Source: Fibrobacteria bacterium (lineage in GTDB: Bacteria > Fibrobacterota > Chitinivibrionia > Chitinivibrionales > FEN-1185). Taken from it: 39,942 nt of DNA. Of this stretch, positions 4,211-25,082 are shown in pieces. The stretch is from the NCBI GenBank assembly GCA_037447435.1, contig JBBIGR010000044.1:1284-41225 (forward strand), read 5' to 3'. The number at the start of each line of letters is the position of its first letter. Position 1 is the stretch's first letter. The notes under the pieces were generated by a model, which was not told the DNA's origin, searched no databases, and worked only from the letters and a program-made list of their open reading frames with translations. Both the position numbers and the translations under genes were made by a program.

Positions 4211-4462
4211 CTATTCTGGTCGGAAAGCTTCATTAGTGATATAGGTGTCGAAGAATTCTTTAAATCTGACGATTTTGCAGTCTTTTAGAGAGACTAAGTG
4301 GACAAAGTCCGACTCATAGGTTTTACCTGTTGATTTTGCGAGACATTTCGTGAAACCAATGACGGCAACGCATCCTGGTTTGTTAGAAATTGAACAGTTT
4401 CCAACTTTTGCTTTAAATGCATCGTCGTGATTTCGGCGTTCTCTTTTTATTTTGTTGCACAT
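4211..4462 (-). pseudogene. Chimeric remnant: IS3-family OrfA N-terminus (KRERRNHDDAFKAKV) fused to the C-terminal part of a SnoaL/NTF2-like protein
   Basis: The N-terminal peptide matches the typical IS3 OrfA start RRxHxxxFKAKV. The C-terminal VAVIGFTKCLAKSTGKTYESDFVHLVSLKDCKIVRFKEFFDT matches the end of ketosteroid-isomerase-like proteins. Confidence 0.7.
4401..4441. repeat. 41-bp direct repeat, copy 1 (IS3 orfA-derived; candidate att site)
   Basis: ccaacttttgctttaaatgcatcgtcgtgatttcggcgttc; 36/41 identical to 11628-11668. Confidence 0.85.
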
Positions 4463-7528: not shown

Positions 7529-8141
7529 ATTCAAAAAAGCCCTGCATTTTAGCTTGATTGGGAAACAAGGTGAACCAATAAATTTTCATTCAATTCAGCC
7601 TAGAAGCAATCTGTTCTTAATACAAATTCCAAACCAGAATATTCGACGATTTGTTTATGACGCATTTACCACAATATTATCTGGAATCAATTTGACAACT
7701 GATCAGGAGTTTGTAAGAGATTATTTGTACATTCAAAACAATCTTCATCATTTGACTGCTGATTTTAAATTCCTTAGCAGAAATGGCTCGGAAGTTTCTT
7801 TGAACTACCGTTGGAAAAGACAGTTTTTTATTGATCCGGTTTACTATAACCAGCGGCAAGCCGAAACAGTTTTTAAGAGTTTATTAGCTAAGCCGAATCG
7901 TGAAAAATCTTGGAGATCCAGCCTGGAATTTTCTGATGAAGAAGTAACGGTCACTAATGGCATAAATTTTATTGCGAATTCCAATAAATTAAATAAACCA
8001 CTTGTTCTTTTAGAAATTGACAAGGCCACTCCATTGTCCATTTCAAACGTCTTGGATTATAATGGTCAGATCATCATCCTTATTGAAAGAATTGAAAATA
8101 TTCTGAAGAAACTTTCTACAGCGACTCTGGAGGAAAAATGA
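7518..8141 (+). CDS. Hypothetical protein, degenerate ABC/Rad50-like ATPase fold (paralog B)
   Basis: SD aggagg at 7506-7511 supports a start at 7518. Motifs NLFLIQIPNQNIRRFVYDAFTTIL, PLVLLEID and GQIIIL. Confidence 0.55.
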   Translation: MGIEFKKALHFSLIGKQGEPINFHSIQPRSNLFLIQIPNQNIRRFVYDAFTTILSGINLTTDQEFVRDYLYIQNNLHHLTADFKFLSRNGSEVSLNYRWKRQFFIDPVYYNQRQAETVFKSLLAKPNREKSWRSSLEFSDEEVTVTNGINFIANSNKLNKPLVLLEIDKATPLSISNVLDYNGQIIILIERIENILKKLSTATLEEK

Positions 8142-8533
8142 AAAACGCAAACGAAAGCGACAAACAGAATGCACTAAATAAGCCGGCACCAAAATTGCCA
8201 GCTGAGAAAAAACCAAGTAAATCAGCTCTGGAACTTTTTAATGCGTTAGCAGCCGAACAGAAAGCCGCGGCAAAAAAGGCTGATCAGTATAAAATTCAAA
8301 TTCAGGGAAAACTCTCTCATTCGGAAAGAGTTGAAGCCTTTTACTTTTTTTGTAAAAATCAAGAATATGACAGTGGCGGGAATACCCGAAAACGACTTTT
8401 ACGAAGCATTGATGATGTGTCACTGGTTTCGGTTTATGACTTTAAAAGCAAATTTCCTATTTCGTTAGTCAGGCTAATAAATATTCGATTATTGCCAAAA
8501 AAGGAAAATACAAATGGCTTCAGAATTACCTGA
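8138..8533 (+). CDS. Hypothetical protein
   Basis: ATGA overlap with the upstream stop, SD ggagga; Lys/Pro/Ala-rich N-terminus; no family recognised. Confidence 0.6.
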   Translation: MKNANESDKQNALNKPAPKLPAEKKPSKSALELFNALAAEQKAAAKKADQYKIQIQGKLSHSERVEAFYFFCKNQEYDSGGNTRKRLLRSIDDVSLVSVYDFKSKFPISLVRLINIRLLPKKENTNGFRIT

Positions 8534-8705
8534 AATCCCCAAAAATATACCTCCCAAATTATGGGCCCAATTAAAGGCATTTGCCGTTGAGCCCACCGGA
8601 GCTGAGGTTTTACGTCCATTACTTAAAATACTGGCTTACGAAATTTTCTTCGAATTGTCTGGTTTAAAAACTCCTGCAAACGATCTAAAGAAAATAAAAA
8701 AATAA
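8514..8705 (+). CDS. Small hypothetical protein upstream of the serine recombinase
   Basis: SD aagga; overlaps the previous ORF; helical 63 aa with a basic tail. Confidence 0.55.
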   Translation: MASELPEIPKNIPPKLWAQLKAFAVEPTGAEVLRPLLKILAYEIFFELSGLKTPANDLKKIKK

Positions 8706-8791
8706 AAAACATCTTTAATATTCAATTTTTTTTTTGTATCACAATTATAGCTCAATTTTGCAGTGTTAAAAACCTATACAAAGGAAAAGGT

Positions 8792-9391
8792 ATGAAAAAT
8801 AAAAAAATGCTGATGCCAGCCGCAATTTATGTACGACGTTCATGTGCAAAATCCAATGATTCCTCCTGCGAGGATCAAAAAAACCATTGTTTAAAAAAAA
8901 TGGGAGAACTAGGGTTTTATCTTGCCCATGAACAGGATTTGTATGAGGATGATGTCGTCAGTGGAATACTTTTTTTTACTCGGAAACGGATGGCCCAAAT
9001 TTTGGATATACTAAAAACGCCACGGCCGTTAGATCCGCGACCATACGAGGCTATTTTTGTCGATGATATCTCTCGAATTGCTAGGAACATTGCATTCTGT
9101 GCATTATTTGGCCAAGCCCTCCGTTTCCATAAAATCAAGTTGTTTGACGCTCTGGGGCACGAATACACTTCCTTAGAGGGTTATTGCATGCTACTAATAA
9201 TGGCTCTAGGGGCAGAAATAACTAGAACATTTTTATCATCACAAACATCGCGCGGAATCCATGCGGCAGCTCAAAGAATGGCATTATCAAAAAAGGCGTA
9301 TGGATTTAAACCTGCAAACAATTTTTTGCTGTCTGAAATTAAAAATGCTGTTTTGAACAATATTAATGTAGAGGAGGCTATGAATGAATAA
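8792..9391 (+). CDS. Serine recombinase catalytic (resolvase N-terminal) domain; first half of a split large serine recombinase
   Basis: AAIYVRRS (catalytic Ser), S.EDQ, YEDDVVSG, IFVDDISRIARN, alpha-E helix and YGF motif. Confidence 0.88.
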   Translation: MKNKKMLMPAAIYVRRSCAKSNDSSCEDQKNHCLKKMGELGFYLAHEQDLYEDDVVSGILFFTRKRMAQILDILKTPRPLDPRPYEAIFVDDISRIARNIAFCALFGQALRFHKIKLFDALGHEYTSLEGYCMLLIMALGAEITRTFLSSQTSRGIHAAAQRMALSKKAYGFKPANNFLLSEIKNAVLNNINVEEAMNE

Positions 9392-10775
9392 CGGACATTT
9401 ACCTCAAATAAAGGTTCAAAATGAAATTACCATTATTGATGAAATTTTTCGTAAAATAAAAATCAAACATTCTTGCAATGCTATAGCCAAAGATTTAAAC
9501 GGTAGAAAAATCCCCTCGCCATTAGGGGGTAGATGGACATCTACAGCTATTAGGCGAATTGCAGAAAACCCACTATATGCAGGTGTTGTCGTAATTGGTA
9601 AAACTAAACGTGATTTTAATCCATTAACTGAAACGCATTTTGATATCCCGATTCCTCCAGAAAAGTGGTCGTTTTTTGAGGACCCAATTTTAAATCCATA
9701 CACGGTAATTAGCCCACAGGAATGGATAAAAATTCAGGTTTATTTAACAAAAATTAAAATAAAATCTTCTAGTAAAGGTCGTCCTTTAGGCGAGTTTGGG
9801 CCATCAATTCTTTCCGGACTTTTATACTGTGGATACTGCGGGGCACCGCTAGTAAGTGGTCGAGGAAAAAGGCCTCGAATATTTCGTTGCTCACACCGTA
9901 GGCTGAAAAAAGGAAACCCGAGGCGATGCTCGCATTCGTTCTCAATTCGGGAAGATGAGTTTTTAAAAATCCTTGAGCAAATCATTAAGAATGTAATTGA
10001 AACTATTTATCACGATTGTATCAGAATCCTGAATGACGAGTTTAAAATGGCTGGAGATGATATTCGAAAAGCTCTTTTAAAAAAGGAGGATGAGTATCGC
10101 GATTTGGTAAACCGCGAACAAACATTAATTGAATTTTATGAAGAGGCTAAAATCCGTGGTTTTACAGATACATTCGAGGATTATTTCAGACAGTCGGTGG
10201 TAATTCGCAAAAATATAATATCCTTACAGCAGGAAATCAAAACGTACAGAGATGCCAACACGATTGCCATCGATCCAATTGAAATAGACAAAAATCTTTT
10301 TATTGAAAAGCTTAACAATCTTGAGCTCTTTTTTGAGGAGTATTCAGATATTCAAAATCTTCGCACTGCAATTAAAAGTTTTATTCCCAAGATTTTTATA
10401 AAATCTACGAAAGTTGAAAAAAAATATTTAAACCTCACATTTTGGATTGACGAAATCCCAGCTGGATTACCTGATTTTTTAAACAAAGAACATTCCTGCA
10501 TCATTCAACGTACAAAATCAAAGAATAATGTTAGAAAAGCAATCGAAGAAATAAAGGATTTTAGTGTAGATAAAAGAAATAATTTTTTTCAGTATCTGTA
10601 TGATAATTTGTCAGACTCGTACGTGTCTGACAAATTATCATACAGGTTTAAATCCATAATTCCTCGCTATTGGAATGTAATATTTCCCGTAGGTCCTAGA
10701 AACATCACTGATCAATTTTACTATTCAACACCGTTCGCAGTTCAACTTTTTGGGTTTGAAACCGACCTCAATTAG
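9384..10775 (+). CDS. Large serine recombinase C-terminal part (recombinase domain, zinc ribbon, coiled coil)
   Basis: IAKDLNGRKIPSPLGGRWTSTAIRRIAENPLYAG, VISPQEW, LSGLLYCGYCGAPL...FRC...C and a coiled coil; has its own SD gaggagg at 9371-9377. Confidence 0.88.
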   Translation: MNNGHLPQIKVQNEITIIDEIFRKIKIKHSCNAIAKDLNGRKIPSPLGGRWTSTAIRRIAENPLYAGVVVIGKTKRDFNPLTETHFDIPIPPEKWSFFEDPILNPYTVISPQEWIKIQVYLTKIKIKSSSKGRPLGEFGPSILSGLLYCGYCGAPLVSGRGKRPRIFRCSHRRLKKGNPRRCSHSFSIREDEFLKILEQIIKNVIETIYHDCIRILNDEFKMAGDDIRKALLKKEDEYRDLVNREQTLIEFYEEAKIRGFTDTFEDYFRQSVVIRKNIISLQQEIKTYRDANTIAIDPIEIDKNLFIEKLNNLELFFEEYSDIQNLRTAIKSFIPKIFIKSTKVEKKYLNLTFWIDEIPAGLPDFLNKEHSCIIQRTKSKNNVRKAIEEIKDFSVDKRNNFFQYLYDNLSDSYVSDKLSYRFKSIIPRYWNVIFPVGPRNITDQFYYSTPFAVQLFGFETDLN

Positions 10776-10802: not shown

Positions 10803-11381
10803 ATGAAACTTGCTAACATTTTGGATATGGAAAAATTGATTACGGGTTATGAATCAGAAATAACCCAAGTTCAAACAATTATTGTAGAAATTAAAGAAAA
10901 ATTTAAAACTCTAATTGAAAAAACGTCTAACTTCTCAATTGAAGAAAAAAATCTCTCATCTAATATTGTAGAAAATCAAAGGAATGAAATAATTAATAAT
11001 TTCATAGGAGAAATTTTAAATCAAAGAAATGATATATACAAATTTAATGTTGGTTTTTCTAAACCACTTAAAACGAGTTCAATTAACCCAGTAAATATTG
11101 CAATTGGTCAAAACAACACTATAAAACAAAGCCACCTTGATTATGATGATGTTGGTAGAAAACGATTCAATTGGAAAAAATTAATACCAGGAGTATTGCA
11201 AAAAAATGGCAATCTATCCACGCGACAACTTATCGATTTATTTGTTCAGGAAGGCATTATCAATCGAGATGATAAAAAACAAGAAGCTTGTGTTAGGTCA
11301 GGTATAAAATCTCTCGAATCCTGCGGAATAATTAGGCAGGTTGAAAAATGTTATGGAGGACTCTGGACCTTCGTTGTCTAA
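10803..11381 (+). CDS. Hypothetical protein with N-terminal coiled coil and C-terminal winged-helix-like domain
   Basis: WKKLIPGVLQKNGNLSTRQLIDLF...VRSGIKSLESCGIIRQV....GLWTF resembles a wHTH pattern. Confidence 0.6.
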   Translation: MKLANILDMEKLITGYESEITQVQTIIVEIKEKFKTLIEKTSNFSIEEKNLSSNIVENQRNEIINNFIGEILNQRNDIYKFNVGFSKPLKTSSINPVNIAIGQNNTIKQSHLDYDDVGRKRFNWKKLIPGVLQKNGNLSTRQLIDLFVQEGIINRDDKKQEACVRSGIKSLESCGIIRQVEKCYGGLWTFVV

Positions 11382-11627
11382 ATTCATGCTCTATACAGCA
11401 TTGTTTAGGTTCAGCATGAACCTTTGGGTTTAACAGGCTGTTCGCGGTTCAAGTCAGATTTTTTAAAATCAAATTAAGAAGACAAATTGAATTGTTAAAT
11501 ATTTCTTGTATCTTGATTATTATCATTTAGTTATACAATATTAAAAGAAAATTCAAAAATAAGTTTATTATTTATAATAAAATTTGTACTATAAATGTCC
11601 AATAAATTTTACAAAAATCTAACGGTG

Positions 11628-11668
11628 CCGATTTTTGCCTTAAATGCATCATCGTGATTCCGGCGTTC
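11628..11668. repeat. 41-bp direct repeat, copy 2 (IS3 orfA-derived; candidate att site)
   Basis: ccgatttttgccttaaatgcatcatcgtgattccggcgttc; the minus strand reads ERRNHDDAFKAKIG. Confidence 0.85.
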
Positions 11669-11754: not shown

Positions 11755-13758
11755 TTAAAAAAATGTCGATAAATCCCAGGCCTCCCCACCCGAGGCTACT
11801 CCGCTAACATTCAGATTTCCTAAGCCGTTAAACGACGGATTTATGTCAACCGTCATTTCACCTCCGTCAAAATATTTTGAAAGATCCTCACGGACTTCTT
11901 TGCGCCCATCTCCCGTCTCAATGACCATTCCTTGCCCTTCATTTGGAATTTCAAAGTTTAATTGATTTTCTCTTAATACAGGCTTAACATCAATTTCTAA
12001 ACTTGAATCCTCAAAATATGATAAAATATCAGTCGCTTCGCGAGATCCTTTTATATCACTAATTGGAATGTCACAAAAAAACAACCCATGTTTTTTACAT
12101 CCGATAGTATCACAATCTTTACAGTTATAACATTTTTTTGCTTTAATCATTATTGCACCTGAGCAAAAAACATATTTGTTTTCGGCCATGCAATTATCAA
12201 TGGACGATGCATGAATGGATTTTAAACTTTGCACCGCCTCTTGCAGGACATTTTCAGCATCGTTTATGGTGCAAGCTAATGATCTCTTAACCTGAGAAAT
12301 TGTTGCTCCAGCCGTTAATTGTTCCCTACTCCACTCAACGGCATTTTCGCGAAGAGCAAAATTGGCAGTGGAAAGAACAATGGCATTTTGCTCAACTGGA
12401 GCAGCTTCGCACAAGGATTTAGAATCACTTTTCGTGTCAATATATGCTAATCGAACCGCCTCTGTTAAACGCTTTTGTGGAATTGTAATTTTGTTCAATT
12501 CCTTAACTTGGCTACTTGACAATTTTCCTTTTACTTGAAGTTCGGTAATTGCCTTATCAACGTCTTTCATTTCCACGCCATTCTCCATAATCTTAGCACC
12601 AATCAAACTGCAGGTTTTCAAGGCATTTTCTCTCCAATGACAATCGGCGCACGCCGTTATTGGAAACACTGTTACCACTTTTAAAGTGTTTTTTCGAAGA
12701 AAGTCTCGACACATTTCGCAATTTCCATTGTAAAACGAAGGGAAGGCTGCTAAATGAGTAACCAAGAGTGCAGGGTCTGCATTCTTTTTTATATACGCTA
12801 TTGCGTCTTGAACTAATTTTTTTTCAGGGAATAATCTATTAACTTCTTGACGAGCAATGGCCCAACCCGTACCTTTTAATAACAATTCCCCAAGATGCCT
12901 AGCAATTGGCAAAATCTTTCTATCAGCAATTTCCTGCTGCATATCCTCACTTTGTTTTTTATTTTTCATAACAGTATTTTTAAGTGCGACTTCAATTCTT
13001 TGCTTATCAATCGATTCTGCCTTATGTTTTATCACAGGCACAGAATGAGGATATTCCCTACTTTCTCTTTCTTTTGCTTTATCTGACATTGCATCACGGA
13101 GATCAGACCAGTTATTAATCGTTGAGTTAGATAATATTTTTCCACGTTCTTTAAGATGTTTAACTGCCTCTTTTAATTCCGTTTTAGTCGTAGGCACATT
13201 CGCCAGTAGTTTTTTTCCAGTTTCAGGACAAAATCCGTACTTTTGCTTACATAGTTCGCATTCACTATTCGAAACAATCCAAAGTACGTGCCGTGCGGCA
13301 GATTTTTCAGCAGCCTTTCTGACTTCAGAACATTTACAAACTGCATTTCTGTCTAAATACAATTCGCCATGAAATGGCCTATCGGCAAGAAGAATCGAAG
13401 CTTCTGTTTGTGTTAAAAAATTCTTTTCGACGGAATTTTCTAAATGTTGTTTTGCTTTAGCAACCGGCTCATTCATGATATTATTCCAATTGGCGATTCG
13501 AATTGCCTCAATTTTTTGGTCATTCTTGTCGACCGCTTTTTCAGATGCCCTGATACCGTGCAAAAATTCATTGTTTGGTATTAACCCTGTTTTACCGATT
13601 TTTCCGTCTGGCATTGCTTCTAAAAATTTATCGAGATCCAGAGTATCATGTCCAACGGATTCTACATAAAAATTCAAATGTTTTTGATCGGAACCAAAAA
13701 GATCATTCGGTAAACTGCCCAGCCCGCCTCCTAACCCACCTCCAAAATCATTATCCAT
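11755..13758 (-). CDS. Large Cys-rich hypothetical protein with three repeated putative metal-binding modules
   Basis: 667-aa ORF, SD aaagga. Three C...CxxC...C-x3-G modules: CELC...CPETG, CADC...CSLIG and CYNC...CKKHG. Confidence 0.8.
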   Translation of the reverse strand: MDNDFGGGLGGGLGSLPNDLFGSDQKHLNFYVESVGHDTLDLDKFLEAMPDGKIGKTGLIPNNEFLHGIRASEKAVDKNDQKIEAIRIANWNNIMNEPVAKAKQHLENSVEKNFLTQTEASILLADRPFHGELYLDRNAVCKCSEVRKAAEKSAARHVLWIVSNSECELCKQKYGFCPETGKKLLANVPTTKTELKEAVKHLKERGKILSNSTINNWSDLRDAMSDKAKERESREYPHSVPVIKHKAESIDKQRIEVALKNTVMKNKKQSEDMQQEIADRKILPIARHLGELLLKGTGWAIARQEVNRLFPEKKLVQDAIAYIKKNADPALLVTHLAAFPSFYNGNCEMCRDFLRKNTLKVVTVFPITACADCHWRENALKTCSLIGAKIMENGVEMKDVDKAITELQVKGKLSSSQVKELNKITIPQKRLTEAVRLAYIDTKSDSKSLCEAAPVEQNAIVLSTANFALRENAVEWSREQLTAGATISQVKRSLACTINDAENVLQEAVQSLKSIHASSIDNCMAENKYVFCSGAIMIKAKKCYNCKDCDTIGCKKHGLFFCDIPISDIKGSREATDILSYFEDSSLEIDVKPVLRENQLNFEIPNEGQGMVIETGDGRKEVREDLSKYFDGGEMTVDINPSFNGLGNLNVSGVASGGEAWDLSTFF

Positions 13759-13990
13759 ATTTTTTTCCTTTTAAATAAAGTTGAAAAAGCTTATTCAACC
13801 TTATAAAAATATTAATAGATAATTTTATAATTTGTAATAAAGGAAATCAAATAGAAATACGGACTGAAATTAAAATCAGTGGTATATTACTTGTCAAAGT
13901 GTGTTTTAAGTGGGGGAAATAATATTTTTACTGAAAGTATAAATACATTTTTTTTATTGTGCAGGTGCTGGTTTAAGCTATAATAAAACA

Positions 13991-14025
13991 AAATCCACCT
14001 AAGACGCCCTGTTTTAGGTGGATTT
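13991..14025 (-). terminator. Rho-independent terminator of the LamG gene
   Basis: aaatccacctaagac-gccct-gttttaggtggattt stem, followed on the minus strand by a T-rich run. Confidence 0.75.
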
Positions 14026-14061
14026 CAAAATGAAAAGGCTATACGATCTATTAAACTTTTA

Positions 14062-15732
14062 CTATTTCAACATGATAAGTTGCTCCGAAATCTGTTGCCC
14101 ATTAGCATGATGAACAATGAAAAAATATTTTCCGTTCGCAACGGACTCACCCGACAAATTTGATCCATCCCATGTATAGTTATATGAACCCGATTGCTTA
14201 ATACCACTAAAAACTTTTTTAGTAAGCTTTCCATTTACATCATAAATTGAAATATCCAGTGATTCAGTAAAAGGAATCGAATACCTTATTGTTGTTGTGG
14301 TTCGTATAGGATTAGGAAATGATTTTGTACTAATAACCGAGTGAGGAAATAAAAGGGATTTATTGACAACCTTGGTTATGCCTGGATTGCAAAAAGCGGC
14401 TATGTCAGCGGACGTCCTTTGGAATTTTGATATACGTATATTGTCCATAAGACCATTATATGGATATGGAAAGTTAGGATCACCGTTCATTTTTCCTAAT
14501 TGGCATTTGTAAGTACTAGAGCTAAGGATCGTAGCAGCAGTTTTTGTACTATCGAGGATACCATTTATATAAATAGACGCTGTCCCACCTATTTTATACG
14601 TCGCAGCAACATAATAACTTTGATTCGCCACCAATATAGTTTTAGAATTAATAGAAAAACTTTGAGATTGAACTGAGCTTTTTTTCTCAAATTTAACTTG
14701 CCCATTATTAATAACCATTAAAATTGAGCCATCACCTGGAAAGGAAGCGTTTCCATTATCATTACCTTTACTAAATAGATATTGATACGAAATGGTTGTC
14801 GGCTTAACCCACATTTCTATTGTCATCTCAGGAAAATCAAAAGATTGGCTATTTGCTATTTCCACATATGACTGGTTGGCACTTTGAAAATTTACAGCTT
14901 TACCAGAAACTCCATTAGTCCAAGTTCCATTGTATATAGTACCATTATTATTTTTTCCGCTCGAATCCTGAAGAATATTCCCCGTACCTTCATTGCATCG
15001 GTATAGCACGATAGGATTTGTATCTGGATTGCAAAAGGCAGCGATGTCAGCAGAAGTCCTTTGAATTTTTGATATACGTATATTGTCCATAAGACCATTA
15101 TATGGATATGGAAAGTTAGGATCACCGTTCATTTTTCCTAATTGGCATTTGTAAGTACTAGAGCTAAGGATCGTAGCAGCAGTTTTTGTACTATCGAGGA
15201 TACCATTTATATAAATAGACGCTGTCCCACCTATTTTATACGTCGCAGCAACATAATAACTTTGATTCGCCACCAATATAGTTTTAGAATTAATAGAAAA
15301 ACTTTGAGATTGAACTGAGCTTTTTTTCTCAAATTTAACTTGCCCATTATTAATAACCATTAAAATTGAGCCATCACCTGGAAAGGAAGCGTTTCCATTA
15401 TCATTACCTTTACTAAATAGATATTGATACGAAATGGTTGTCGGCTTAACCCACATTTCTATTGTCATCTCAGGAAAATCAAAAGATTGGCTATTTGCTA
15501 TTTCCACATATGACTGGTTGGCACTTTGAAAATTTACAGCTTTACCAGAAACTCCATTAGTCCAAGTTCCATTGTATATAGTACCATTATTGTTTTTTCC
15601 GCTAGAATCCTGAAGAATATTCCCCGTACCTTCATTGCATCCGTATAACGCAACGACATTCGAATCCGTTTGTGCTGGTGTCAATGTAAACACCGCTAAA
15701 CTAAAGATAAAAATCACAACGGTTCTACGCAT
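14062..15732 (-). CDS. Secreted protein with two tandem LamG/ConA-like domains and a FlgD-Ig/T9SS-type C-terminal domain
   Basis: Start MRRTVV at 15732 (SD aaaggaga) with a signal peptide. LamG motifs TIEMWVKP, YINGILD and YNGLMDNIRIS each occur twice. C-terminus FPNP...IRY...ISIYDVNGK...WDG...ANGKYF. Confidence 0.9.
   Translation of the reverse strand: MRRTVVIFIFSLAVFTLTPAQTDSNVVALYGCNEGTGNILQDSSGKNNNGTIYNGTWTNGVSGKAVNFQSANQSYVEIANSQSFDFPEMTIEMWVKPTTISYQYLFSKGNDNGNASFPGDGSILMVINNGQVKFEKKSSVQSQSFSINSKTILVANQSYYVAATYKIGGTASIYINGILDSTKTAATILSSSTYKCQLGKMNGDPNFPYPYNGLMDNIRISKIQRTSADIAAFCNPDTNPIVLYRCNEGTGNILQDSSGKNNNGTIYNGTWTNGVSGKAVNFQSANQSYVEIANSQSFDFPEMTIEMWVKPTTISYQYLFSKGNDNGNASFPGDGSILMVINNGQVKFEKKSSVQSQSFSINSKTILVANQSYYVAATYKIGGTASIYINGILDSTKTAATILSSSTYKCQLGKMNGDPNFPYPYNGLMDNIRISKFQRTSADIAAFCNPGITKVVNKSLLFPHSVISTKSFPNPIRTTTTIRYSIPFTESLDISIYDVNGKLTKKVFSGIKQSGSYNYTWDGSNLSGESVANGKYFFIVHHANGQQISEQLIMLK
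14382..15646. repeat. Tandem 642-bp intragenic duplication
   Basis: Offset 642 bp (14382 vs 15024). 14425-14949 appears identical to 15067-15591, and differences are confined to the ends. Confidence 0.95.
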
Positions 15733-17755: not shown

Positions 17756-17777
17756 AAAAGTCACGCAAAAGTCACGC
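17756..17777. repeat. Tandem 11-bp direct repeat (aaaagtcacgc x2), candidate integrase arm-type binding sites
   Basis: Perfect tandem copies 54 bp upstream of the tRNA fragment. Confidence 0.65.
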
Positions 17778-17830
17778 AACCTGCATTATTTGAATTTGAA
17801 TTTGTTTATGAATCAATAATTTGAAACGAA

Positions 17831-17886
17831 AGAGCACTACCTTGGGGTGGTAGGGGTCGCAGGTTCAAATCCCGCCACACCGACCA
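17831..17886 (+). mobile_element. 3' fragment of tRNA-Pro(GGG); attachment site marking the right end of a genomic island
   Basis: agagca-ctacc-ttggggt-ggtag-gggtc-gcagg-ttcaaat-cccgc-cacaccg-a-cca. The anticodon arm, T arm and CCA are present; the 5' acceptor strand and most of the D arm are absent. It coincides with the base-composition shift. Confidence 0.85.
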
Positions 17887-17887
17887 T

Positions 17888-17927
17888 AAAAATGGAATGA
17901 TACCGAAAGGTTCATTCCATTTTTTTT
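17888..17927 (+). terminator. Rho-independent terminator downstream of the tRNA fragment
   Basis: aaaaatggaatga-t-acc-gaaa-ggt-tcattccattttt plus a T-run. Confidence 0.85.
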
Positions 17928-22177: not shown

Positions 22178-23755
22178 ATGCGCAAACGATTCGTCAAAGC
22201 CGTACCCTCGCTGCATCACGACCATTCGTCCTACAAATGGTGGGTGCTTTGCAACATTATGGTCTCCACTTTCATGGTCGTACTCGATGCCACGATCGTC
22301 AATACCGCGCTTCCAAAGGTAATGGCGTCGTTCGGAATTTCGGTCGACGTTGCACAATGGATACTCACGTGTTACATGCTCGCTTTTGCGATCATGCTCC
22401 CCACTTCGGGCTGGATAGCCGACAGGCTCGGCTACAAACGGACCTATGCATTGGGCCTTGCCCTTTTTACCGTATTTTCATTCCTCTGCGGCATTGCATG
22501 GAACGAAAAGGCGCTCATCATCATGCGCATCGGACAAGGAATCGGCGGCGGCATGCTGCAGCCCATCGGCATGGCGATCATCATGCGGGAATTCCCGCCC
22601 GAGAAGCGCGGGCTCGCCATGGGGTTCTGGTCTATCGCCGCGGCGGCTTCGGTATCCCTGGGCCCAATGCTCGGGGGCTTTCTTGTTGACAATTTCGACT
22701 GGCACCTCATTTTCAATATCAATGTGCCCTTCGGCATCCTCGGTTTTTTCGCCACCTGGGTGATTCAGCGCGAATACAAAACGCAACAGGCCCACCCGTT
22801 CGATATCACGGGGTTTATTTCACTTTCCGTGTTTTTAAGTTTCCTGCTCATCGCATTGTCCAGCGGGAATTCGCAATGGAACACCGGCGGCTGGACATCC
22901 GATTTCATGATGCTTTGCTACGCATTGTCGGTAATCGGGTTCGTCGTTTTCATGGTCACGGAACTCAACGTAAAGCATCCGCTCGTCCGCCTGAGACTTT
23001 TAGGCAGATACAATTTCGGGCTCACGAATCTGGTCATGTTTATTTTCGGCATCGGCATGTTCGGCAGCACGTTTCTCATGCCGCTTTTCCTGCAGAACAT
23101 ACTCGGGTACACGGCACTGCAATCGGGCATGATTTTTCTTCCGGTCGGCATGCTGCAAGCGGTGTGCGGACCGATATCCGGCTATTTTTCCGATAAAGTC
23201 AATCCCAAAATCCCGATCTCTGTCGGCATCGTACTGTTTGCGACCAGTTTCTTTTTAAACGGCAACCTTACGTTTTGGTCCGAACACGCACAAATCATGA
23301 TGCCCATGTATTTGCGCGGCGTTGCCATGGGAATGCTCTTTTCTCCGCTTTCCGCAATGGCAATGAACGGCATTTCGCGACAGGAAATGGCGCAGGCTTC
23401 GGGTTTATTGAATGTTGTCCGCCAAGTCGGCGGAAGTTTCGGCGTGGCGATTTTACAAACATTGTTCACCTTGCGCATTTCTTTCCACACGGCAATATCG
23501 GGGGCGCTGATCAACCGTAATTCCCCGCTTTTCATCCATAGTCAACATATGCTGCAAATACATGCGATGCAAAACGGCGGCTCGACAATGCAAAATGCCG
23601 CGACGCAGGCATCGGGAATAATCTCTTCACATTTTGCGCAACAGATGTTTGTTTGGGCACTCAACGATGATTTTCTTTTCTCCTGCATTTGCACGCTGGG
23701 CTGCATCATTCCCATTCTTTTTCTCAAGACACCCAAAAAAGGATTATTGAAATGA
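22178..23755 (+). CDS. emrB: DHA2/EmrB-family MFS efflux transporter
   Basis: FMVVLDATIVNTALP, GWIADRLG, GPMLGG..W.LIFNINVPFG and RQVGGSFG motifs. Confidence 0.93.
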   Translation: MRKRFVKAVPSLHHDHSSYKWWVLCNIMVSTFMVVLDATIVNTALPKVMASFGISVDVAQWILTCYMLAFAIMLPTSGWIADRLGYKRTYALGLALFTVFSFLCGIAWNEKALIIMRIGQGIGGGMLQPIGMAIIMREFPPEKRGLAMGFWSIAAAASVSLGPMLGGFLVDNFDWHLIFNINVPFGILGFFATWVIQREYKTQQAHPFDITGFISLSVFLSFLLIALSSGNSQWNTGGWTSDFMMLCYALSVIGFVVFMVTELNVKHPLVRLRLLGRYNFGLTNLVMFIFGIGMFGSTFLMPLFLQNILGYTALQSGMIFLPVGMLQAVCGPISGYFSDKVNPKIPISVGIVLFATSFFLNGNLTFWSEHAQIMMPMYLRGVAMGMLFSPLSAMAMNGISRQEMAQASGLLNVVRQVGGSFGVAILQTLFTLRISFHTAISGALINRNSPLFIHSQHMLQIHAMQNGGSTMQNAATQASGIISSHFAQQMFVWALNDDFLFSCICTLGCIIPILFLKTPKKGLLK

Positions 23756-25082
23756 TCAACTTTTCGACCTGTTTTATTTCCCTGCATAAACGCCATTGGA
23801 TGTTTTCTTTATTCATATGCGCCGCTTGTTCTGTTTTTGCCCAACAGGATTCCTTGACAATAAATAAGGCCATCGAAATCGTATTGGACCGCCACCCGTC
23901 GGTGATCCAGGTGCAGGAAGCGCTTGCCGCGGCCCAGGAACACTCGCAAAGCCTCAAAAGCGCGTATTATCCATCGGTCAATTCCTCCGTATCGTACGCC
24001 TATGTCGGCCCTGACCAAACCTTAACGATACCCGGCATGGGATCATTCAGCCTGTTCCCGCAAAATAATTACGACGGGCATGTCTCCGTGTCGTATACGG
24101 TTTTCGATTTCGGCAAACGATCGACTAATTTAGAAACCGGCAAAGTCGGAGAAGCCTCGGCAAAAGACCGGGCCCAACAAGTAAAAACAAATCTCATGTA
24201 TCAGGTCATACATATTTATTCGATGATCAATTTGGAGGAAAAAAGCCTCCGCATCGCAAACGAAGCGCTCGAGGAACTCGGTCGTCATTTACTGGTCGTG
24301 AAAAAGAAACTCGAAACCGGAAGCGCAACCGAATACGATACGTTAAAAACGCAGGTACAGCTCACCAATGCGATGAGCCAGAAAATAGATATCGCAAACG
24401 ATATGGCCAAGCAGCAGACAATACTTCGTCAACTCCTCGGATTCAAAGAAGGTTCGCCGCTTCTTTTAAAGGAAGTCATCGACACGCTGGCGCCGCAGAT
24501 AAATTCGGATTCGCTTGTCCGCTACGCTTTGGAAACCGTTCGGAAAGAAGCCTGGCATTACGTGCCAAGGAATCGGCACATCTTCAAAAAGAAAGCATAA
24601 AAAAGGAAAATTTGCCTATTGTCAAAGCCCAGGCGGAGGCCGGGTTCAAAAACGGTATTTTACCCGATATCAATTCCCCCACGTTCGATTGGACTTTGGC
24701 CGCACAAATAACAATGCCTCTTTTCGACGGCTTTCACGAAAAACGTTCCGAAAATGAAGCGAGTCGTAACGAACAAGCCGCTGCAGCCGGGATAAATGAT
24801 GCCGAAGAACGGATTAAAACAAATGTGATCCAGGCGGAAGCGGATGTCGAAGCGTCATATTCAAAGCTCGATATATCCCGCTCTCAATTGAATTTTGCCC
24901 AAAGATCGCTGGAACTGGCGCGGATCAAATACGATGCCGGCGTCATTACCAATGTCGATGTGCTCGATGCCGAAAACGAATTGTCGCAGGCAAAACTCGG
25001 CCACCTCCAAAATCAATACCGGTATTTCATGAGCAAACATTCCCTGGACCAGGCCACGGGAGCTTTTCCGGCAGCCCGGTAA
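23752..25082 (+). pseudogene. TolC-family outer-membrane efflux protein, interrupted by a 1-base frameshift near 24533-24535
   Basis: Adding one A restores ...YALENRSERSLALRAKESAHLQKESIKKENLPIVKAQ..., joining the two ORFs. OEP repeats are visible (YYPSV; YDAGVITNVDVLDAE). May be a sequencing error. Confidence 0.8.

Follow-up and report, generated by a model that had tools for sequence, protein, structure and literature searches.

Two overlapping genes in the window, by which we mean the whole stretch of 39,942 nucleotides analysed here, share the domains of a large serine recombinase between them, and the question is whether they encode one enzyme made of two chains or the remains of a broken gene. 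The features of the locus are collected in Table 1. ORF1 matches PF00239 at residues 10-162 with 49 bits (cut-off 23.3) and carries the nucleophile motif Y-x-R-x-S and the R-x-x-R motif of the large serine recombinases. ORF2 contains the recombinase domain, the four-cysteine zinc ribbon and the coiled coil of this enzyme class, with matches above the cut-offs to PF07508 at residues 13-118 (55.1 bits) and to PF13408 at residues 142-197 (44.6 bits), and no catalytic domain was found in it. The full set of domains, which in large serine recombinases is carried by a single polypeptide, is here spread over two ORFs in different frames that overlap by 8 nt (ATGAATAA). The ATG of ORF2 at 9384 is placed 6 nt past GAGGAGG, which presumably serves the translation of ORF2. 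The initial annotation had described the catalytic domain, helix αE and YGF strand of ORF1 followed by a tail, as well as the overlap and the GAGGAGG motif, and all of this is borne out, with the tail measuring 27 residues.

Table 1. Positions of the recombinase genes and associated features in the window.
Feature	Position	Strand	Description
ORF0	8514-8705	+	63 aa, directly upstream of ORF1; conserved
ORF1	8792-9391	+	199 aa; serine-recombinase catalytic domain, helix αE, YGF strand, 27-residue tail
GAGGAGG	9371-9377	+	Shine-Dalgarno-type motif for ORF2, in the last codons of ORF1; seen in the sequence
ORF2	9384-10775	+	463 aa; rest of the recombinase domain, zinc ribbon, coiled coil, C-terminal extension of ~110 residues
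Palindrome	10596-10645		50 bp, candidate attP-like site; centre TA at 10620/10621, ORF2 codons 405-421
192-aa gene	10803-11381	+	27 nt downstream of ORF2; module membership not implied
tRNA-Pro(GGG) 3' part duplicate	17831-17891	+	61 bp, exact; far end of the carrier island

The split of the recombinase into two genes is real. A Logan contig of run X1 spans positions 7759-10652 with no letter differences and no gaps relative to the window, which excludes a slip of the assembler and nothing beyond that, as X1 possibly is the source sample and so does not count as an independent one. On the phrog_95 profile of 651 positions, ORF1 covers positions 82-252 and ORF2 positions 261-564, so that the two ORFs tile the PHROG integrase profile and no large part is missing. 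In a profile built from 69 fused relatives, residues 11-352 of ORF2 match positions 185-521. The single-chain models, which are of low confidence (mean pLDDT 54.6 and 55.6), predict long helices at residues 190-258 and 264-295 of ORF2, and the only matches in a fold search were generic helical hairpins, for the coiled coil. A search of the Atlas with the C-terminal extension of the homolog P0003 gave no match at 0.9 or above, and the family profile search gave no intein match.

The initial annotation had located the split at the boundary between the catalytic and the DNA-binding domains, and here it needs correction. In the LI integrase structure (PMC3783163), the end of helix αE and a four-stranded sheet form part of the recombinase domain. 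ORF1 retains the whole of helix αE and the YGF strand, and since the end of αE and this strand belong to the recombinase domain, the break lies inside that domain; the strand names of the known structure are here carried over to the ORF1/ORF2 family by presumed correspondence. In the profile of the fused relatives, the ORF1-type proteins end at positions 167-175 and the ORF2-type proteins start at positions 183-185, which places the break in the loop after the YGF strand, at about positions 170-185. The length of this loop ranges from 13 to 50 residues in the fused relatives (33 of the 69, in which the pattern was measurable), and the alignment indicates that the break sits in the most variable loop of the recombinase domain. 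The ORF2-type proteins start without the hydrophobic strand pattern that precedes the first helix in the fused relatives.

Homologs are split in the same loop. Nine clusters of catalytic-only proteins were identified, including that of the window (P0001, P0005-P0009, P0011, P0161 and P0162), which are 161-236 aa long and 52-80% identical. Three of the nine come from contigs of less than 1 kb and could be cut by the contig ends, and P0011 is possibly from the same study as the window, as matched by eye. All nine end 9-62 residues past the GF-x-P motif, in tails that differ in length and sequence. The ORF2-type proteins fall into three clusters (P0002, P0003 at 63% and P0004 at 39-41% identity) of 459-466 aa, and in each of them some 13 residues precede the first recombinase helix. 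The key residues that the initial annotation had reported for both halves are intact in these relatives: Y-x-R-R-S-C is present in all seven ORF1 relatives with a complete N-terminus, DD-x-[ST]-R-x-A-R-N in all nine ORF1-type proteins, and the zinc cysteines C149, C152, C169 and C182 in all three ORF2-type proteins. The motif V-[LVI]-[ND]-x-[IV] is shared by four of the nine ORF1 tails at a near-equal offset (9314-9388 in the window) and could possibly mark a docking helix; in a hydrophobic-moment test for amphipathic helices, two of the eight testable tails exceeded 95% of the shuffled sequences.

No fused close relative was found. The ORF2 search returned none among proteins of 254-811 aa, a range into which a fusion of about 640 aa would fall, and none of 508 candidates in the ORF1 search for longer proteins was a fused form, in a search that is weak by the tool's own note. 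A profile search against 1.84 billion representatives gave three matches at 1e-30 or better, all of 117-184 aa, the next being at 6.5e-12. The nearest fused proteins are just 23-30% identical across the matched parts. A phylogeny of the C-terminal halves, inferred with a quick method, grouped the three split proteins with a support of 99, with no sure fused sister. Two divergent fused large serine recombinases are encoded elsewhere in the genome of the window, G000, on contigs C49 (1-2200) and C62 (3400-6600), with open frames of 702 and 922 aa; they have related N-terminal extensions and group at 100 in the tree, and the protein on C62 has no PF00239 match.

The module is present in 2 of the 296 genomes of the phylum, G000 and one other, which is counted together with locus L001 as one locus, and its DNA was seen at two loci, the window and L001. 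A scan of genome contigs for further loci gave L001 only. One metagenome scan contained no relative of the module, and another, covering 26 of 64 parts, gave at least 34 loci, all at E 8e-9 or worse. Four scans of viral contigs contained neither a relative nor a two-arm site, and the 13 single-arm matches in viral contigs had no recombinase nearby. The phage records contained no relative of the module, and the plasmid records contained fused relatives of 24-27% identity and no palindrome site. P0005 and P0003 each lie on a JGI contig of 6601 bp and are probably neighbours; by back-translation, their ends permit exactly one set of codons, an overlap of 11 nt in the +1 relation, so that the coupling appears to be kept with a different stop.

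A comparison of the window with L001 indicates that both halves are under purifying selection. For ORF1, pN was 0.285 and pS 0.729 (pN/pS 0.39), and for ORF2, pN was 0.418 and pS 0.667 (pN/pS 0.63); the ratios are rough because the synonymous sites are near saturation. Within ORF2, the zinc ribbon (pN/pS 0.45) and the recombinase domain (0.53) had lower ratios than the coiled coil and tail (0.75-0.77). When neutral drift was simulated to the identity of P0003 (63%), ORF2 acquired a mean of 13.4 stops and was stop-free in none of 500 runs, and drift to the identity of P0005 (79%) gave ORF1 a mean of 3.4 stops, with 16 of 500 runs stop-free, in a simulation that loads all change on one branch and disregards that only long ORFs get found.

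The module is carried by an island that has the features of a tRNA-targeted tyrosine-integrase island, namely a duplicate of the 3' part of a tRNA gene and an integrase beside the intact tRNA. The duplicate is identical at 61 of 61 nt to positions 24602-24662 of contig C47 in G000, where the whole tRNA gene adjoins a tyrosine-integrase gene at 23117-24283 (phrog_1 match, E 8.2e-29). Short repeats at 17756-17778 of the window recur beside the tRNA-Pro of C47, and the GC fraction is about 0.33-0.36 in the island and 0.41-0.54 beyond 17 kb. The two ends of the island, which lie on different contigs, are probably linked. The visible ends, with their tRNA duplication and adjoining tyrosine integrase, are thus not the work of the serine system, which travels as cargo. 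The initial annotation was silent on this integrase, on the upstream 63-aa gene and on the 50-bp palindrome.

ORF0 has no match in Pfam, NCBIfam or PHROGs. A homolog was found in two of the five genomes searched, among them G056, where it is at the same position and 51% identical over residues 7-48 (E 1.8e-4 for one genome). Its counterpart in L001 also precedes ORF1, with a stop that overlaps the ORF1 start and no in-frame ATG, GTG or TTG start seen. From its position, ORF0 is a candidate accessory or directionality factor. The 192-aa gene has no family match in Pfam, NCBIfam or PHROGs and shows no similarity that could be detected to its positional counterpart in L001, and a terminator-like hairpin follows it at 11407-11423. 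A 41-nt direct repeat (88%) at 4401-4441 and 11628-11668 surrounds a 7-kb block with rmuC and the recombinase module, and a third copy is found on contig C43; judged by eye from its motif, the repeat looks like the start of an IS3-type transposase gene, for which there was no family match. The island also encodes a 667-aa cysteine-rich protein (11755-13758) with no Pfam, NCBIfam or PHROG match. At 14382-15647, the window encodes a secreted Laminin-G/FlgD protein with an internal duplication of 624 bp, the copies of which are 98% identical and 642 bp apart.

Locus L001, labelled Chitinispirillaceae, has the module 1.4 kb away from a tyrosine integrase that adjoins tRNA-Lys, and its island shares no genes of note with that of the window besides the module. 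The integrase (13085-14212) is broken by one in-frame TAA. ORF1 and ORF2 are separated by 430 nt, the ribosome-binding site of ORF2 is weak, and the intergenic stretch holds a broken second copy of the recombinase domain, which shares 41 of 74 residues with the ORF2 of L001 and 23 with the other two. L001 looks partly decayed, judging from the gap, the broken domain copy, the weak ribosome-binding site and the integrase stop. The start of the extra copy keeps the hydrophobic strand pattern of the fused relatives, about 38-39 codons behind the GF motif. The copy fits a remnant of a gene with catalytic and recombinase domains that stood beside a gene with recombinase domain, zinc ribbon and coiled coil; alternatively, as it has an ATG of its own at the start, it could be a duplicate of the ORF2 start that has decayed. 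A tree gave the remnant no resolved position.

The palindrome near the end of ORF2 pairs at 24 of 25 positions. In the 5.05-Mb genome, 27 sites reach 20 of 25 pairs or better, and among these it comes second; the other high-pairing sites, among the 25 of 27 listed and judged by eye, are mostly terminator-hairpin-like. Its folding z-score is -10.9, and none of 200 shuffles was as good. The corresponding site in L001 has 19 of 25 pairs and 89% identity over 47 nt, with flanks that barely align and an about equal distance to the ORF2 stop. The ORF2 homolog in L001 is 41% identical, yet the palindrome is kept as DNA. Between the window and L001, third codon positions at the palindrome are identical in 15 of 15 cases vs 184 of 445 gene-wide, with four residues changed, and at identical residues they are the same in 11 of 11 vs 72 of 166 cases. 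By our own arithmetic, 15 of 15 has a chance probability near 7e-4 when about 430 windows are allowed for, and the next best window of 15 codons has 13 of 15. P0003 keeps the peptide block, and its residues, when back-translated, leave room for a perfect palindrome with an altered centre. The third-position identity and the P0003 block make the constraint look like one on DNA.

The palindrome is a candidate for the cognate site of about 50 bp that large serine recombinases recognize. The contacts of an integrase dimer extend over 50 bp of attP (PMC3783163), and the palindrome spans 50 bp, with conservation that stops about 23-25 bp on each side of the centre. It is whole in both DNA loci, and both of its arms are present in 2 of the 296 genomes. 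G000 (99.6% complete, 96 contigs) yielded neither a partner site nor a hybrid half-site nor a recombined product; the best arm match elsewhere in it was 18 of 25, and no second arm rose above chance that would mark an attL/attR pair made by this enzyme. An attB-type model scored 22 in G000 vs 23-24 for shuffled models. The comM gene and tRNA genes were rejected as targets, with best matches of 23-25 of 50 and 12-13 of 20 positions, and comM is whole in both genomes.

These results lead us to a proposal, held at about even confidence, that ORF1 and ORF2 may form a translationally coupled two-subunit large serine recombinase that would act at an intragenic attP-like palindrome; the two-subunit integrase named in the initial annotation remains the best reading of the split. 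Ribosomes finishing ORF1 would restart at the overlapping ATG and make both chains in matched amounts. The end of αE and the YGF strand of ORF1 would dock into the helices of ORF2, completing the recombinase domain non-covalently, and two ORF1-ORF2 units would cover the palindrome, like an integrase dimer on a 50-bp attP. The enzyme would integrate the element, as a free circle, at some target, with ORF2 losing only the last ~50 residues of its extension, and ORF0 may set the direction. Entry of the island through its tyrosine integrase would explain why the palindrome is unused in the two genomes observed. The failures of engineered splits, the lack of a recombination product, the number of DNA loci, which is two, and the decay of L001 count against this reading.

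We also put forward, more tentatively, a natural two-subunit serine integrase in which a free catalytic head would be recruited non-covalently to a DNA-binding and synapsis subunit, the position of the break would tolerate what engineered splits do not, the symmetric site would lie in the enzyme's own gene and the 63-aa protein would be a directionality factor of a new family. L001 would then show a route to the split, in which a partial duplication gave one gene with catalytic and recombinase domains and another with recombinase domain, zinc ribbon and coiled coil, after which the first recombinase domain was lost.

The recombinase may instead be active in two subunits with its true sites elsewhere, and the palindrome be a two-box repressor operator or a site that ORF2 only binds. 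Each 19-bp arm is itself a GT(A/C)TGA-N7-TCA(T/G)AC dyad, as an operator would have it, and the palindrome was never seen recombined. Dyads of 19 bp that are near-identical to one arm occur as single boxes at 1501-1519 of both L048 and L049. In L049 the dyad immediately precedes an antitoxin-like gene, behind which comes a toxin-like, MazF-like gene, as judged by eye, and the flanks in L048 are similar. However, such single-box matches are at chance level, being present in six further genomes of the 296 vs six control matches. The conservation also ends about where the span of an integrase dimer ends, the two loci have unrelated genes downstream, and a promoter scan gave 12 sites vs 14.2 expected. 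We consider the operator unlikely.

Rather improbable, in our view, is that the halves are no longer one enzyme, with ORF2 as a palindrome-binding protein and ORF1 as a catalytic domain that works alone or for another partner. Such a separation would agree with engineered split serine integrases, which regain DNA binding at most (PMC6868429), with the missing strand pattern at the start of ORF2, and with the faster divergence of its coiled coil and tail. It is at odds with the adjacency and shared order of the genes in both DNA loci and with the catalytic motifs, which are retained in all nine ORF1-type proteins, the nucleophile being present in every complete N-terminus. Furthermore, ORF1, in which PF00239 is the only match, has no DNA-binding domain of its own.

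A programmed +1 frameshift that joins the halves is very improbable. The Shine-Dalgarno-type motif near the stop and the +1 relation, found in the window and by back-translation in P0005/P0003, could suggest one. The ORF2 frame, however, is closed until 9384 by a TGA directly before the ATG, which confines a frameshift to two codons, and there is no in-phase slippery run between this TGA and the ORF1 stop. Within the final 100 nt of ORF1, slippery-type heptamers occur at 9305 and 9322 only, from where ORF2 cannot be reached, the three frames of the intergenic stretch in L001 hold 10, 7 and 5 stops, and the ORF1 tails vary in length and sequence. An in-phase slippery site, two open frames and their conservation, which would mark a programmed frameshift, were thus not found, and translational coupling would fit the layout better. 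The initial annotation had inferred a genuine two-subunit integrase or a regulated frameshift rather than random decay; the homologs, the lack of a fused close relative and the selection on both halves support a genuine split over random decay, and the regulated frameshift is not supported.

An assembly error or the recent decay of a fused gene is largely refuted and retains a minimal probability. The sequence ATGAATGAATAA could come from a 4-nt duplication, the neighbours in L001 are decayed, and the window has another frameshifted gene, the outer-membrane efflux gene of a TetR/HlyD/MFS operon (23689-25082), which is split in two frames near 24600. Against this stand the identical X1 assembly, the nine diverged ORF1-type proteins that stop in the same loop, the lack of a fused close relative and the selection on both halves. 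That the enzyme resolves a symmetric site on itself, into hairpin ends or by flipping between replicated copies and with no attB integration, would suit a site that is near-perfectly symmetric through its self-complementary central TA, always whole and lacking a partner, but is highly implausible, given that both copies reside in tRNA islands of the chromosome, that the contigs examined gave no signal of hairpin ends or junctions and that, to our knowledge, no serine recombinase has such an activity.

The ORF1-ORF2 pair shares the set and order of domains, the catalytic motifs, the four zinc cysteines and the coiled coil with the large serine recombinases (Listeria LI/A118, φC31 and Bxb1; PHROG 95), and its candidate site is likewise 50 bp long (PMC3783163). 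It differs from them in that it is encoded by two genes and broken in the loop after the YGF strand, in the ~110 extra C-terminal residues of ORF2, and in a near-perfectly symmetric site inside a gene, for which no attL/attR pair was found. The relatives of ORF1 are labelled Pin/Hin-type in JGI, and like these small serine resolvases and invertases, ORF1 has about 200 aa and a resolvase catalytic domain. However, it lacks the helix-turn-helix that in these enzymes is C-terminal to αE in the same chain, PF00239 being its only match; the ORF1-type proteins have tails of 9-62 unconserved residues in its place, and ORF1 ends in the GF-x-P motif of the large serine recombinases and adjoins the C-terminal half of such an enzyme. 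The attachment site inside the recombinase gene, a candidate here, resembles that of the archaeal "suicide" tyrosine integrases as described in PMC8371274. These use tyrosine chemistry and are broken by integration, whereas a crossover in the window would spare the canonical domains, residues 1-352 of ORF2.

Serine integrases are treated as needing a covalent link between the catalytic and DNA-binding parts in published work (PMC6868429). As described there, φC31 integrase split between β9 and αI did not recombine by non-covalent association, TnpX split at β9-αI regained DNA binding only, and split φC31 integrase required intein splicing, unlike split tyrosine recombinases. The pair in the window is like these engineered enzymes in consisting of two polypeptides broken inside the recombinase domain, and differs from them in that the split is natural, lies earlier in the domain and comes with no intein family match. 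A literature search that covered the smaller part of subscription papers found no natural two-gene serine integrase, and the accessible part of PMC10083194 contains no such case, though its supplementary tables might list members.

The family is rare, with members in 2 of the 296 genomes of the phylum, and its intragenic palindrome is a substrate on which two-subunit assembly can be tested. A natural, selected split after the YGF strand would mark a break point at which non-covalent assembly may work. If this is true, two-input (AND-gate) integrases could be designed directly on the model of this family, and it could be tested how subunit rotation copes with an interrupted chain.
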